A model generated the notes under the pieces. It was not told where the DNA came from, searched no databases, and was given only the letters and a program-made list of their open reading frames with translations. The translations under genes were made by a program, and so were the position numbers. A DNA stretch of 64,000 nt from Escherichia coli (GTDB lineage: Bacteria; Pseudomonadota; Gammaproteobacteria; Enterobacterales; Enterobacteriaceae): the NCBI RefSeq assembly GCF_050920415.1, contig NZ_CP169309.1; one strand, given 5' to 3'. This document shows positions 42,993-48,950 of this stretch, piece after piece. How positions within the stretch are numbered: the first letter of the stretch is position 1; each line of letters begins with the position of its first letter.

Positions 42993-43006
42993 TTGATAAC
43001 GATCAA
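42993..43006 (+). promoter_or_regulatory. FNR box upstream of the ydhY operon
   Basis: ttgataacgatcaa is a perfect match to the FNR consensus TTGAT-N4-ATCAA, in the AT-rich spacer about 200 bp upstream of the ydhY ATG. Confidence 0.7.
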
Positions 43007-43207
43007 TGTTAAGAGCTCAGAATAATCACATTATTTTTCCTCCTAACCATAAAGGATTAGTTTATCAGCGTTAAATCTTTTCTCATACACTATCGGGTTA
43101 GGGAAAATATCTGGTGTTGGGGACAGAGTCAGCAGCGTATTAGTTGAATGCTTAATATCAGGCTGCTGAATTGTCAGCACTGTGTTTGCGAAGAGGATGC
43201 GAAATAA

Positions 43208-43834
43208 ATGAACCCGGTTGATCGTCCACTATTAGATATTGGCTTAACGCGATTAGAATTCTTGCGTATATCAGGAAAAGGCCTTGCTGGTCTAACAATT
43301 GCCCCTGCGTTACTGTCACTTTTGGGTTGCAAACAGGAAGATATTGATAGCGGCACAGTAGGGTTGATAAATACACCCAAAGGGGTGCTGGTGACCCAAC
43401 GTGCGCGATGCACGGGTTGCCACCGCTGTGAAATCTCTTGTACCAACTTCAACGATGGCTCAGTAGGGACATTCTTCTCCCGTATCAAAATCCATCGCAA
43501 TTATTTCTTTGGCGATAACGGGGTTGGCTCTGGTGGCGGCCTGTATGGCGATCTCAACTATACCGCGGACACCTGCCGTCAATGCAAAGAACCGCAATGC
43601 ATGAATGTCTGCCCGATTGGTGCGATTACCTGGCAACAGGAAGAAGGCTGTATTACCGTCGATCATAAACGTTGTATTGGTTGTAGCGCCTGTACGACGG
43701 CATGCCCGTGGATGATGGCCACCGTAAATACCGAAAGTAAAAAATCCTCGAAATGTGTGTTATGCGGTGAATGCGCAAACGCCTGCCCAACAGGGGCGTT
43801 AAAAATTATCGAGTGGAAAGATATTACTGTGTGA
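43208..43834 (+). CDS. ydhY: Ferredoxin-like protein with four 4Fe-4S cluster motifs
   Basis: 208 aa with four Cys clusters of the CxxCxxCxxxCP type. Confidence 0.9.
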   Translation: MNPVDRPLLDIGLTRLEFLRISGKGLAGLTIAPALLSLLGCKQEDIDSGTVGLINTPKGVLVTQRARCTGCHRCEISCTNFNDGSVGTFFSRIKIHRNYFFGDNGVGSGGGLYGDLNYTADTCRQCKEPQCMNVCPIGAITWQQEEGCITVDHKRCIGCSACTTACPWMMATVNTESKKSSKCVLCGECANACPTGALKIIEWKDITV

Positions 43835-43854
43835 ATCTTGCAAAGGAAAAAATC

Positions 43855-46683: not shown

Positions 46684-47352
46684 ATGTCCTTCACTCGACG
46701 CAAATTTGTTCTGGGGATGGGAACAGTAATCTTTTTTACTGGTTCAGCGTCTTCTCTGTTAGCGAACACGAGGCAAGAAAAGGAAGTTCGGTATGCCATG
46801 ATTCATGACGAGTCACGGTGCAATGGCTGTAATATTTGCGCCCGCGCATGCCGTAAAACCAATCATGTCCCCGCTCAGGGAAGCCGTTTATCGATAGCAC
46901 ACATACCGGTCACCGATAACGACAACGAAACGCAGTATCACTTTTTTCGCCAGTCATGCCAGCACTGTGAAGATGCTCCTTGCATCGACGTTTGCCCAAC
47001 AGGAGCGTCATGGCGTGATATGCAGGGGATCGTGCGGGTAGAAAAATCGCAGTGCATCGGCTGCAGTTATTGCATTGGCGCTTGCCCGTACCAGGTTCGC
47101 TACCTTAACCCTGTCACTAAAGTTGCAGATAAATGTGATTTCTGCGCTGAGTCCCGACTGGCAAAAGGCTTTCCGCCCATTTGCGTCAGCGCCTGTCCGG
47201 AACACGCATTGATCTTTGGTCGCGAAGATAGCCCAGAAATTCAGGCGTGGTTGCAGGAAAATAAATACTATCAATATCAGCTACCTGGTGCCGGGAAACC
47301 GCATCTGTATCGCCGATTCGGTCAACATTTGATTAAAAAGGAAAATGTATGA
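46684..47352 (+). CDS. ydhX: Tat-signal 4Fe-4S ferredoxin-like protein
   Basis: 222 aa from ATG 46684; twin-arginine motif TRRKFVLG; four Cys clusters; stop overlaps ydhU start (ATGA). Confidence 0.85.
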   Translation: MSFTRRKFVLGMGTVIFFTGSASSLLANTRQEKEVRYAMIHDESRCNGCNICARACRKTNHVPAQGSRLSIAHIPVTDNDNETQYHFFRQSCQHCEDAPCIDVCPTGASWRDMQGIVRVEKSQCIGCSYCIGACPYQVRYLNPVTKVADKCDFCAESRLAKGFPPICVSACPEHALIFGREDSPEIQAWLQENKYYQYQLPGAGKPHLYRRFGQHLIKKENV

Positions 47353-48134
47353 ACCCGTCGCAACATGCTGAACAGTTTCAGAGCCAGTTGGCGAACTATG
47401 TGCCACAGTTCACTCCCCAATTTTGGCCGGTGTGGTTGATCATTGCTGGACTATTGCTGGTAGGGATGTGGTTTGTGCTGGGGCTGCATGCCTTGCTTCG
47501 TGCTCGTGGCGTGAAGAAATCAGCCACCGACCATGGTGAGAAGGTTTATCTTTACAGCAAAGCGGTCAGATTATGGCACTGGTCGAATGCGTTACTCTTT
47601 GTATTGTTGCTGGCAAGTGGGCTGATAAATCACTTTGCGCTGGTGGGCGCAACTGCGGTTAAAAGTCTGGTTGCGGTGCATGAAGTTTGCGGATTTTTGT
47701 TACTGGCATGCTGGCTCGGCTTTGTTCTGATCAATGCCGTTGGGGGTAATGGTCACCACTATCGCATTCGTCGTCAGGGGTGGCTGGAGCGAGCGGCAAA
47801 ACAAACGCGATTCTATTTGTTTGGCATTATGCAGGGGGAAGAACATCCTTTCCCGGCAACAACCCAGTCTAAATTTAATCCCTTACAGCAGGTTGCCTAT
47901 ATTGGTGTCATGTATGGATTGCTGCCGTTGTTACTATTGACGGGGCTGCTGTGTCTCTATCCGCAAGCCGTGGGAGATGTGTTTCCTGGCGTAAGATACT
48001 GGTTATTGCAGGCGCATTTTGCTCTGGCATTTATAAGCCTCTTTTTTATCTTCGGTCATCTTTATCTTTGCACCACGGGGCGTACGCCACACGAAACCTT
48101 TAAAAGCATGGTCGATGGCTATCACCGGCACTAA
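47349..48134 (+). CDS. ydhU: Cytochrome b-type membrane anchor (PhsC-like)
   Basis: 261 aa with multiple hydrophobic helices and conserved His residues. Confidence 0.88.
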   Translation: MNPSQHAEQFQSQLANYVPQFTPQFWPVWLIIAGLLLVGMWFVLGLHALLRARGVKKSATDHGEKVYLYSKAVRLWHWSNALLFVLLLASGLINHFALVGATAVKSLVAVHEVCGFLLLACWLGFVLINAVGGNGHHYRIRRQGWLERAAKQTRFYLFGIMQGEEHPFPATTQSKFNPLQQVAYIGVMYGLLPLLLLTGLLCLYPQAVGDVFPGVRYWLLQAHFALAFISLFFIFGHLYLCTTGRTPHETFKSMVDGYHRH

Positions 48135-48137
48135 CGA

Positions 48138-48950
48138 ATGATCATTACACGAGCAGACCTGCGAGAATGGCGTATCGGAGCGGTGATGTATCGCTGGTTC
48201 CTGCGCCATTTCCCACGCGGCGGTAGTTATGCCGATATTCATCATGCACTTATTGAGGAAGGATATACGGACTGGGCGGAGAGTCTGGTTGAGTATGCGT
48301 GGAAAAAATGGCTGGCGGATGAAAACTTCGCGCATCAGGAAGTTTCTTCTATGCAAAAACTGGCCATAGATCCCGGAGATAGACCATTTTGCAGTCAGTT
48401 TGCCCGCAGCGACGATCATGCTCGCATCGGCTGTTGTGAGGATAATGCCAGAATCGCAACTGCTGGGTATGCCGCGCAAATTGCCAGTATGGGTTATAGC
48501 GTGCGGATTGGAAGTGTCGGCTTTAACAGTCACATTGGCAGCTCCGGTGAACGCGCACGGGTTGCTGTAACCGGTAATTCTTCGCGGATAAGCAGCGCTG
48601 GAGATAGTAGTCGGATTGCGAATACCGGAATGCGAGTACGCGTTTGCACATTGGGTGAACGGTGTCATGTCGCCAGTAATGGTGACCTGGTGCAAATCGC
48701 CAGCTTTGGCGCAAACGCCAGAATTGCCAACAGCGGCGACAATGTACACATCATTGCCAGCGGTGAAGATTCAACAATAGTGAGCACGGGCGTGGTCGAC
48801 TCAATTATTCTCGGGCCAGGGGGAAGCGCCGCACTGGCATATCATGACGGCGAAAGAGTTCGCTTCGCCGTCGCCATTGAAGGTGAAAACAATATTCGAG
48901 CCGGAGTCCGCTATCGCCTTAATGAACAGCATCAGTTTGTTGAGTGCTGA
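48138..48950 (+). CDS. ydhT: Protein YdhT with 9-residue tandem repeats
   Basis: 270 aa; residues ~91-226 form about 15 tandem nonapeptide repeats of type G-x-x-x-x-R-[IV]-[AG]-S. Confidence 0.85.
   Translation: MIITRADLREWRIGAVMYRWFLRHFPRGGSYADIHHALIEEGYTDWAESLVEYAWKKWLADENFAHQEVSSMQKLAIDPGDRPFCSQFARSDDHARIGCCEDNARIATAGYAAQIASMGYSVRIGSVGFNSHIGSSGERARVAVTGNSSRISSAGDSSRIANTGMRVRVCTLGERCHVASNGDLVQIASFGANARIANSGDNVHIIASGEDSTIVSTGVVDSIILGPGGSAALAYHDGERVRFAVAIEGENNIRAGVRYRLNEQHQFVEC

Follow-up and report, generated by a model that had tools for sequence, protein, structure and literature searches.

The ydhYVWXUT operon of a non-K-12 Escherichia coli strain: a possible periplasm-facing, quinol-linked reductase built around a Cys-ligated AOR-fold enzyme

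The reaction carried out by the ydhYVWXUT gene cluster of Escherichia coli is the question raised by the locus considered here, which lies in a 64 kb stretch of DNA (contig NZ_CP169309.1; hereafter, the window). To our knowledge, YdhV, the product of the second gene, is the one E. coli molybdoenzyme to which no reaction has been assigned. An earlier note, made from the sequence alone, had described a respiratory complex encoded behind an FNR box, with an unassigned substrate, at a locus that was known rather than new. The locus is indeed a known one, the ydhYVWXUT operon, which E. coli induces under anaerobic conditions, although the DNA analyzed here comes from a non-K-12 strain. The operon was characterised in 2008, and no activity or phenotype has been reported since (PMC13328260); the substrate was still unassigned in the literature as of June 2026. 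The reading reached here, in which we place about even confidence, is that the operon encodes a periplasm-facing, quinol-linked reductase of a non-aldehyde acceptor. As far as the available accounts go, FNR dependence (PMC3688515) and the pterin cofactor of YdhV (PMC9103625, PMC13328260) were already published, and both agree with a respiratory complex. The additions made here are incremental, namely, the Y-V-W core, the YdhW fold, the YdhT solenoid, the single-Arg motif of YdhY, and the pair of FNR and Nar sites.

YdhV belongs to the AOR/WOR family, as it matched 1aor, 1b25, 9mqx_D, and 4z3w at E values of 1e-44 to 1e-96, and PF02730 and PF01314 are present in its orthologues from other genomes. 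The label "AOR-family" given earlier was thus right as a fold, and it can be refined to a Cys-ligated clade beside BamB. Good alignment to the solved aldehyde oxidoreductases was obtained only for the N-terminal domain and the C-terminal tail, and the best full-range alignment of the YdhV clade profile was to BamB, a class II benzoyl-CoA reductase, at only 279 bits and with poor alignment of the central domain. Among the 82 clade members taken from the loci fetched in this comparison, the four Cys of the [4Fe-4S] site (C307, C310, C314, and C558, a CxxCxxxC motif plus a distal Cys) were invariant in 82/82, as was C336 within an N-T-C motif. In the profile alignment, C336 fell on BamB Cys322, the tungsten ligand. 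Aldehyde-oxidising AORs (AOR sensu stricto, FOR, and GAPOR) have no ligand from the protein on the metal, and their conserved second-shell Glu and His are Glu313 and His448 in P. furiosus AOR; the YdhV column under Glu313 was not Glu, with the invariant C336 four residues later, and the His448 column could not be aligned in the YdhV profile. The correspondence of Cys336 with BamB Cys322 is already published and not new: Cys336 was described as an extra metal ligand that YdhV has in common only with the BamB clade, and the aldehyde-oxidising second-shell residues were found to be absent (PMC12096430). Given its place in the Cys-ligated clade and its missing aldehyde-oxidising second shell, YdhV has probably been misnamed in RefSeq as far as function is concerned ("aldehyde ferredoxin oxidoreductase"), and aldehyde chemistry is not to be expected of it.

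The published biochemistry was compared with this assignment. Purified YdhV contained a redox-active bis-Mo-MPT (molybdopterin) cofactor and preferred Mo over W, according to the accounts of Reschke 2019 in PMC9103625 and PMC13328260. YdhV has no available activity assay (PMC9103625), and the preparation may have been incomplete; the same possibility applies to the Cetobacterium homologue CsWOR41L, for which no aldehyde oxidation was found (PMC13328260). YdhV has been placed in clade 41 of the Class V WOR enzymes, a class that makes up ~10% of the tungsten/molybdenum oxidoreductase family (PMC13328260, June 2026) and that is widespread in gut bacteria without a known function (PMC13328260). 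Of the features that mark clade 41, the extra Cys (C336) and an adjacent ydhW, which begins 12 nt after ydhV, were found in the present locus.

The wire proposed here, which would run between quinone and YdhV through YdhU, YdhX, and YdhY, is inferred from homology, gene order, and conservation. YdhY carries 16 Cys in four ferredoxin-type motifs and corresponds to a WorS-type 4x[4Fe-4S] small subunit (NF007382, 436 bits); the AOR small subunits 8c0z_C, 9mqx_E, and 6x6u_B were also matched, in agreement with its earlier description as a four-cluster ferredoxin. YdhX likewise has 16 Cys in four ferredoxin-type motifs. It begins with MSFTRRKFVLG, which contains a canonical twin-arginine translocation (Tat) signal, S-F-T-R-R-K-F-V-L, so that its description as a Tat ferredoxin held. 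The best match of YdhX in the PDB was PsrB (2vpw_B, 122 bits), and ArrB and FdnH were matched as well. Its score against the NrfC model, 248 bits, was under the cut-off of 377.6 bits, and YdhX stayed below the cut-off for every named family.

YdhU contains five hydrophobic segments and matched NCBIfam PRK15006 (PhsC) at 457 bits, as expected from the PhsC-like cytochrome b proposed earlier, with lower scores for TIGR02125 (51 bits) and TIGR01583 (25.5 bits); a YdhU orthologue carries PF01292. H77, H111, H223, and H237 were the only invariant His in the 18/18 homologues compared, and all of them lie in hydrophobic segments. This pattern implies that YdhU may bind two b haems stacked across the membrane. 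No match was obtained when YdhU was searched with phmmer against the PDB sequences. In RefSeq, ydhU is named "phsC, thiosulfate reductase cytochrome B subunit" through PRK15006. As phsA and phsB are absent beside ydhU, with no MopB gene between 42543 and 50566, this name is likely over-specific.

In the case of YdhY, the N-terminus (residues 1–41, 43208–43330) contains a Tat-like motif with one Arg, T-R-L-E-F-L-R, in which Leu replaces the second Arg in register. All 14 enterobacterial N-termini (14/14) followed the pattern [ST]-R-[LQ]-x-F-L-R, in the variants T-R-L-E-F-L-R, S-R-L-E-F-L-R, T-R-L-D-F-L-R, and T-R-Q-A-F-L-R, whereas every non-enterobacterial YdhY with a recognisable motif was canonical, [ST]-R-R-x-F-[LMV]-K. 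The rest of the signal, comprising the n-region, a weakly hydrophobic h-region, and F-L-R, is conserved across Enterobacterales. The h-region ends with L-L-G-C, which is lipobox-like in several Clostridia, and the residue after this Cys is Lys in E. coli. In Lol sorting, Lys at the position after the lipobox Cys does not retain a lipoprotein in the inner membrane. Of YdhX and YdhY, only YdhX appears on a published list of proteins predicted to be Tat substrates in E. coli (PMC7549933). Because the Tat motif of YdhY is degenerate and YdhY is missing from that list, the side of the membrane faced by E. coli YdhV is less certain than the literature assumes. The loss of the second Arg appears to coincide with the lineage that gained YdhX, with its canonical Tat signal, and YdhT. 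This correlation is only suggestive, since one lineage represents a single evolutionary event.

To place these subunits in a wider context, species-representative genomes were scanned with an alignment of 10 YdhV clade sequences, and all open reading frames (ORFs) of 79 loci, which showed 44–98% identity, were searched with the six E. coli Ydh proteins. The 79 loci came from Enterobacterales, Cetobacterium, Clostridia and other Bacillota, Spirochaetota, Coriobacteriia, Desulfobacterota/Syntrophia, Nitrospirota, and Chloroflexota. In nearly all of them, and in at least eight bacterial groups, ydhY, ydhV, and ydhW were adjacent. The YdhW homologues outside Enterobacterales were 26–44% identical, and their conserved core corresponds to E. 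coli residues 42–216. Judged from these loci, YdhY-YdhV-YdhW is a conserved core with ydhW as its third universally conserved gene, rather than a peripheral gene of unknown function. The universality of YdhW extends the description in PMC13328260 and is not a new concept, as that paper already covers the "LSW" operon of Cetobacterium, its neighbours (Tat, FdhD, and MoeA), and the variable membrane partners. YdhW is part of the conserved core, yet it was omitted from both published purifications.

The partners of the core differed among lineages. In Cetobacterium, Clostridia, and Spirochaetes, Y-V-W was joined to FdhD, TatC, and MoeA; these genes often followed Y-V-W outside Enterobacterales (loci L016–L018, L020, L022–L024, L029, L044, and others), and tatC was found beside Y-V-W in 10/79 loci. 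These neighbours hint that the YdhV-type cofactor may need sulfuration, FdhD being a cofactor sulfurtransferase, and a dedicated Tat component. In the delta-proteobacterial and Nitrospirota loci, a U-like cytochrome b was encoded between Y and V. A Cgr1-like cytochrome c, a TSCPD-domain protein, and a two-component system accompanied Y-V-W in the Collinsella loci, and an NrfD-like anchor, an X-like ferredoxin, a MopB-like Tat protein, and LuxR-type regulators were found in the Eggerthellaceae loci. Such Coriobacteriia neighbours (LuxR-type, Cgr1-like, and NrfCD-like) are typical of substrate-specific respiratory reductases.

In contrast to the widespread core, ydhX, ydhU, and ydhT occurred together only in Enterobacterales, namely, in Escherichia, Citrobacter, a metagenome-assembled genome (MAG) labelled Raoultella, Budvicia, Proteus, Brenneria, and Jinshanibacter. 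Edwardsiella tarda (L002, 5690–10954) carried ydhY-V-W-X-T without ydhU, and 65 nt separated its ydhX and ydhT. This locus adjoins napFDAGHBC and a narQ/narP-like two-component pair. Salmonella, Klebsiella, and Enterobacter were not among the best 80 loci, and the ydh cluster is probably absent or patchy in Enterobacteriaceae. In Citrobacter werkmanii (L007, 4210–8481), and also in L006, L008, L009, and L014, the ydh operon was found directly downstream of the genes for tetrathionate respiration, with ttrCB divergent from ttrSR and ydhY coming next. A link to tetrathionate through ttrCB and ttrSR was considered as a hint to the substrate and was set aside as mere adjacency, because the Citrobacter ydhY keeps its own FNR box.

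The two proteins to which the earlier note had assigned no function, YdhW and YdhT, gave no significant match against the local Pfam-A database, and the newer Pfam entries PF27264 (YdhW_C) and PF27195 (YdhT_N) were seen only as precomputed labels. YdhW is acidic (isoelectric point of 4.3) and has no signal peptide. Its core (residues 42–216) was predicted as two tandem winged-helix domains with a predicted local distance difference test score (pLDDT) of 91.9. The acidic N-terminal extension (residues 1–42, 45970–46095) was predicted with low confidence and was found in no homologue outside Enterobacterales. Known redox-enzyme chaperones have other folds: TorD is all-alpha, NapD ferredoxin-like, HyaE thioredoxin-like, and FdhE a zinc ribbon. 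YdhW was considered as a chaperone of the TorD/DmsD/NarJ, NapD, HyaE/HybE, or FdhE type, and each was rejected, as the tandem winged helix predicted for YdhW differs from the characteristic fold. The predicted fold of YdhW is thus unlike that of any known redox-enzyme chaperone. Since YdhW lacks a signal peptide and occurs with Y and V across all lineages, an escort function for the V-Y module is likely.

YdhT was predicted (pLDDT 92.5) to consist of an N-terminal five-helix domain followed by a beta-solenoid. Residues 95–238 contain ~16 uninterrupted nonapeptides of the form x-R-I-x-S-x-G-x-x without a conserved Asp, and the period of 9 was evident as an autocorrelation of 0.30 at lag 9 against a background of ~0.06. 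Both an RTX beta-roll (GGxGxDxUx) and a hexapeptide left-handed beta-helix were rejected on the basis of this period and the lack of a conserved Asp. Foldseek comparison of the YdhT model with the PDB returned only generic beta-helices (E >= 0.39), and no invariant Cys or His was present among the YdhT homologues. As Tandem Repeats Finder detected no DNA-level tandem repeat beneath the protein repeats, the solenoid did not expand recently; it is old, and its repeats have diverged. In a database of 5.8 billion proteins, YdhT formed 47 clusters, and all those with a source name were enterobacterial. Its sequence and distribution indicate a cytoplasmic protein that is found only in Enterobacterales.

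Regulation of the operon was assessed from its upstream region. The perfect FNR box pointed out earlier (TTGATAACGATCAA) was recovered and was the sole match to TTGAT-N4-ATCAA in the window. The chance expectation was 0.12 matches per window, and at least one match occurred in 12/100 shuffles; on match statistics alone, the box is only suggestive. Upstream of ydhY in other genera, the box was found with 0 mismatches in Citrobacter, 1 in Edwardsiella, 1 in Jinshanibacter, and 2 in Budvicia. FNR binding by chromatin immunoprecipitation (ChIP), FNR-dependent expression, and a site centred at -42.5 are given in the account of PMC3688515, which cites Partridge 2008, and FNR and NarL are listed as ydh regulators in PMC3141248. 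Control by NarL/NarP is cited, again from Partridge 2008, in PMC3141248 and PMC3688515. The features of a class II FNR promoter are therefore present, with the sequence and conservation found here and the position, ChIP, and expression taken from PMC3688515. Adding 42.5 to the box centre at 42999.5 (PMC3688515) places the probable transcription start near 43042, with a leader of ~166 nt.

The inferred start would be overlapped by a putative NarL/NarP site, a 7-2-7 inverted heptamer pair (TAACCATAAAGGATTA) with 2 mismatches to TACYYMT-NN-AKRRGTA. NarL/NarP bound at 43044–43059 would block initiation, which implies repression. Escherichia, Citrobacter, Jinshanibacter, and Budvicia all carry a Nar 7-2-7 site at 49–52 bp downstream of the FNR box; upstream of ydhY in Edwardsiella, only the FNR box was found, and in Proteus and Brenneria, neither site. 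This phylogenetic footprint makes the FNR box and the Nar site credible independently of the chance statistics. Activation by FNR combined with shut-off by nitrate is the pattern of dmsABC and frdABCD and fits terminal reductases of low potential. For the respiratory dehydrogenase Fdn-N, in contrast, nitrate induces and does not repress. A scan of 42600–49200 with Rfam at permissive thresholds gave no match to a riboswitch (e.g., Moco) in the leader. A terminator scan flagged a small hairpin, TGCTGAATTGTCAGCA, at 43164–43179 in the ydhY leader, ~30 nt before the start codon and followed by a T-rich stretch.

On these grounds, a mechanism can be proposed. Its regulatory part is shown in the literature and agrees with the conserved sites of this locus: under anaerobiosis, active FNR turns on transcription ~42 bp downstream of the centre of its box, and with nitrate or nitrite, phospho-NarL/NarP on the 7-2-7 site overlapping the start shuts ydh off. 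The products of the operon would form one membrane-bound redox complex at the periplasmic face. YdhV would be catalytic, with Cys336-ligated bis-Mo-MPT and one [4Fe-4S] cluster, and would rest on the four-cluster YdhY; YdhY would exchange electrons with the four-cluster YdhX, which would dock on the di-haem YdhU in the inner membrane, and YdhU would exchange electrons with the quinone pool. The likeliest flow would be from quinol through YdhU, YdhX, YdhY, and YdhV to the substrate. The complex may thus act, as a terminal or detoxifying reductase, on an acceptor other than an aldehyde, probably an organic one of low to moderate potential that is encountered in the gut. Its chemistry would be outer-sphere proton-coupled electron transfer of the BamB type, not oxo-transfer to aldehyde. 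With a di-haem anchor of the PhsC type, proton-motive force reportedly drives electrons from menaquinol to an acceptor of lower potential, as is said of the Salmonella thiosulfate reductase; such an anchor in the ydh complex could let proton-motive force help push electrons downhill in potential. YdhW would serve as a dedicated cytoplasmic assembly or escort factor of the V-Y module, or possibly as a co-exported third subunit, and YdhT as a lineage-specific accessory or scaffold without a cofactor that travels with YdhX.

Each part of this proposal has a counterpart in a known system. Class V WOR clade 41 of Cetobacterium somerae (CsWOR41, "LSW") resembles ydh in its adjacent L (YdhV), S (YdhY), and W (YdhW) genes, in the invariant extra Cys, and in the Tat-type signal on S (PMC13328260). 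It differs in that E. coli adds X, U, and T, lacks linked FdhD-TatC-MoeA, and has a single-Arg motif on S; moreover, CsWOR41L prefers W, whereas YdhV prefers Mo (PMC13328260). BamB shares with YdhV the AOR fold, the CxxCxxxC [4Fe-4S] motif, a Cys metal ligand (BamB Cys322), and the lack of an aldehyde second shell. However, BamB is a cytoplasmic tungsten enzyme in a ~1 MDa electron-bifurcating complex, whereas YdhV prefers Mo and is joined to an anchor that serves the quinone pool. As for the anchor side, PsrABC and PhsABC combine, like ydh, a catalytic subunit, a four-cluster protein, and a quinol-interacting membrane anchor with Tat export and anaerobic expression. Unlike those complexes, the ydh catalytic subunit is not a Mo-bis-pyranopterin guanine dinucleotide (Mo-bisPGD, MopB) enzyme, YdhY is an extra ferredoxin in the wire, and phsA and phsB are missing. 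Within the complex iron–sulfur molybdoenzyme (CISM) family, the Tat-exported four-cluster protein was found as YdhX, but no MopB catalytic subunit was found, the sole pterin protein being YdhV of the AOR family. As judged by its parts, the ydh complex would work like a CISM without being one. FdnGHI also combines a catalytic module in the periplasm with a four-cluster subunit and a cytochrome b that binds two haems. In FdnI, two His are reportedly placed 14 residues apart in one helix, and YdhU H223 and H237 are likewise 14 residues apart. FdnH has a C-terminal membrane helix that YdhX lacks, YdhU has five helices and no sequence-level PDB match, and Fdn-N is nitrate-induced, whereas ydh is reported to be nitrate-repressed.

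Several points weigh against the periplasm-facing, quinol-linked reductase. FdnI/HyaC-type cytochromes b usually serve donor:quinone enzymes. The regulation leaves the direction unfixed, because nitrate also represses the H2-oxidising hydrogenases 1 and 2. The single Arg in the enterobacterial YdhY Tat motif means that a periplasmic V-Y module is not secure in E. coli, and Edwardsiella, which keeps Y-V-W-X-T without YdhU, indicates that the cytochrome b is not indispensable. No reported substrate, activity, or phenotype ties the ydh complex to respiration, purified YdhV and CsWOR41L showed no activity in any of the assays tried (PMC9103625, PMC13328260), and deletion of ydhX was without effect in a systemic infection model (competitive index 0.99; PMC7549933). 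In spite of these points, the reductive direction is favoured over the oxidative one and is taken to be about twice as probable, because of the BamB-like active site, the failure to detect aldehyde oxidation, the FNR-on and nitrate-off pattern, and the Coriobacteriia contexts.

The oxidative direction would turn the same complex into a periplasmic dehydrogenase that oxidises a low-potential donor (aldehyde or other) and passes electrons via Y, X, and U to quinone in a redox loop like that of formate dehydrogenase-N. This is considered possible but doubtful. The relation of YdhU to the HyaC/FdnI anchors of donor:quinone enzymes (the TIGR02125 and TIGR01583 matches) and its four invariant His are in its favour, as are the RefSeq name of YdhV and the oxidative direction of all characterised AOR-family enzymes apart from BamB (PMC12096430, PMC13328260). 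Fdn-N, however, is nitrate-induced, whereas the start-overlapping Nar site of the NarL-regulated ydh operon (PMC3141248) implies repression. Moreover, YdhV has the BamB-type Cys ligand without the aldehyde-oxidising second shell (PMC12096430), and no aldehyde oxidation by CsWOR41L was detected (PMC13328260). The location of YdhV raises another explanation, in which the V-Y module of Enterobacterales is cytoplasmic, as the twin Arg of YdhY was lost, YdhX is exported, and di-haem YdhU is a trans-membrane wire between them. The 14/14 single-Arg motifs against R-R in the other recognisable motifs, the presence of YdhX but not YdhY on the predicted Tat substrate list (PMC7549933), and the two membrane-spanning haems predicted in YdhU all point this way. 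It is nevertheless quite unlikely: the remaining YdhY signal is conserved across the order, which argues for continued use, the operon would encode no periplasmic partner for YdhX, and Edwardsiella has no YdhU. In solved relatives, moreover, four-cluster proteins dock beside the catalytic module on the periplasmic face.

The separate histories of the genes could also mean that two unrelated modules share one promoter, with Y-V-W self-contained and served by another partner and X-U-T a separately acquired, possibly decaying quinol dehydrogenase module. In all non-enterobacterial loci, Y-V-W stands without X, U, and T; U was lost in Edwardsiella; and constraint on U and T is relaxed, with synonymous:nonsynonymous codon differences from K-12 of 9:8 in ydhU and 10:5 in ydhT, lower than the 11:1 in ydhY, 45:3 in ydhV, and 17:2 in ydhX. 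These counts indicate strong purifying selection on ydhY, ydhV, and ydhX. The selection on ydhX speaks against two modules, as does the order Y-V-W-X-(U)-T, which is kept in seven named Enterobacterales genera and the MAG labelled Raoultella. The ydhX/ydhU ATGA overlap, the lack of any other catalytic partner for X and U in the operon, and the U-like cytochrome b between Y and V in delta-proteobacteria and Nitrospirota, which shows that such an anchor serves V-Y, also stand against two modules, and this explanation is regarded as very unlikely. In a last explanation, which is extremely improbable, the E. coli cluster would be a remnant, either cryptic or without function. Since the characterisation in 2008, neither a phenotype nor an activity has been reported (PMC13328260), and ydhU transposon insertions raised fitness under ten chemical stresses (PMC5064937), as might be expected of a remnant; but the cluster is intact in 5396/5426 complete genomes, strong purifying selection acts on Y, V, and X, conservation extends to the regulatory sites, and the cofactor of YdhV is inserted and redox-active (PMC9103625).

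A fuller version of the quinol-linked reductase was also formulated for Enterobacterales, and it is judged unlikely to hold in all its parts. In this version, a self-exporting Y-V module with W as its escort would have been captured by an acquired X-U-T module; YdhY would have lost its second Arg, and V-Y would be exported by piggy-backing on the Tat signal of YdhX. YdhW and YdhT would represent two unrecognised classes of assembly factor. In the periplasm, the complex would reduce an unsaturated organic compound by outer-sphere chemistry at a Cys-ligated, BamB-like site, with electrons from menaquinol helped by proton-motive force via the PhsC-type di-haem anchor. Once the substrate of YdhV is found, a new respiratory or detoxifying capacity of E. 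coli, and probably a new reaction type for the AOR fold, would be identified.

The layout of the locus is summarized in Table 1. From the ORF list of the window, six tightly packed genes on the + strand were found to span 43208–48950, in agreement with the earlier description of co-directional genes with an ATGA overlap between ydhX and ydhU, which was located at 47349–47352. The intergenic distances from ydhY to ydhT are, in order, 20, 12, 63, -4, and 3 nt, and the gene coordinates follow the annotation in RefSeq of an E. coli genome that is 100% identical here. An AT-rich spacer of 455 bp separates fumD from ydhY, and the terminator-like hairpin behind fumD is the upstream boundary of the ydh transcription unit.

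Table 1. Positions of the ydh operon, its promoter elements, and its upstream neighbour in the window
Feature	Position	Strand	Remark
fumD (ydhZ)	42543–42752		Upstream neighbour of the ydh operon
Terminator-like hairpin	42757–42785	+	12 bp stem, directly 3' of the fumD stop
FNR box	42993–43006	+	Perfect consensus TTGAT-N4-ATCAA
Probable -10 hexamer, CATTAT	43029–43034	+	8–13 nt upstream of the inferred start
NarL/NarP-type 7-2-7 inverted heptamer pair	43044–43059		Centre at ~+9.5
ydhY	43208–43834	+	208 aa
ydhV	43855–45957	+	700 aa
ydhW	45970–46620	+	216 aa
ydhX	46684–47352	+	222 aa
ydhU (RefSeq "phsC")	47349–48134	+	261 aa
ydhT	48138–48950	+	270 aa

A 6.4 kb query covering the locus was 100% identical to E. 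coli strain MFDS1022581 and 95–99% identical to most other complete E. coli genomes, with at least 80% of the query present in 5396/5426 of them. The ydh proteins are 94–99.5% identical to those of K-12. Compared with MG1655, YdhY differs by 1 residue, YdhV by 3, YdhX by 2, YdhU by 8, and YdhT by 5, and YdhW shows a 4-residue N-terminal indel and 8 substitutions (15 aligned positions differ) with another annotated start. The K-12 operon (b1674–b1669) is the same locus with the same gene order and an identical FNR box and Nar 7-2-7 site; it differs in strain background and in the N-terminal indel and start of YdhW. An antisense ORF of 248 aa (48003–48749, - strand), which lies wholly within ydhT, was dismissed as a coding by-product. 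At the downstream end, ydhS (- strand) converges on ydhT, and the two stop codons are 5 nt apart (48950–48956). As this leaves no space for a terminator, transcription of each gene must enter the other.

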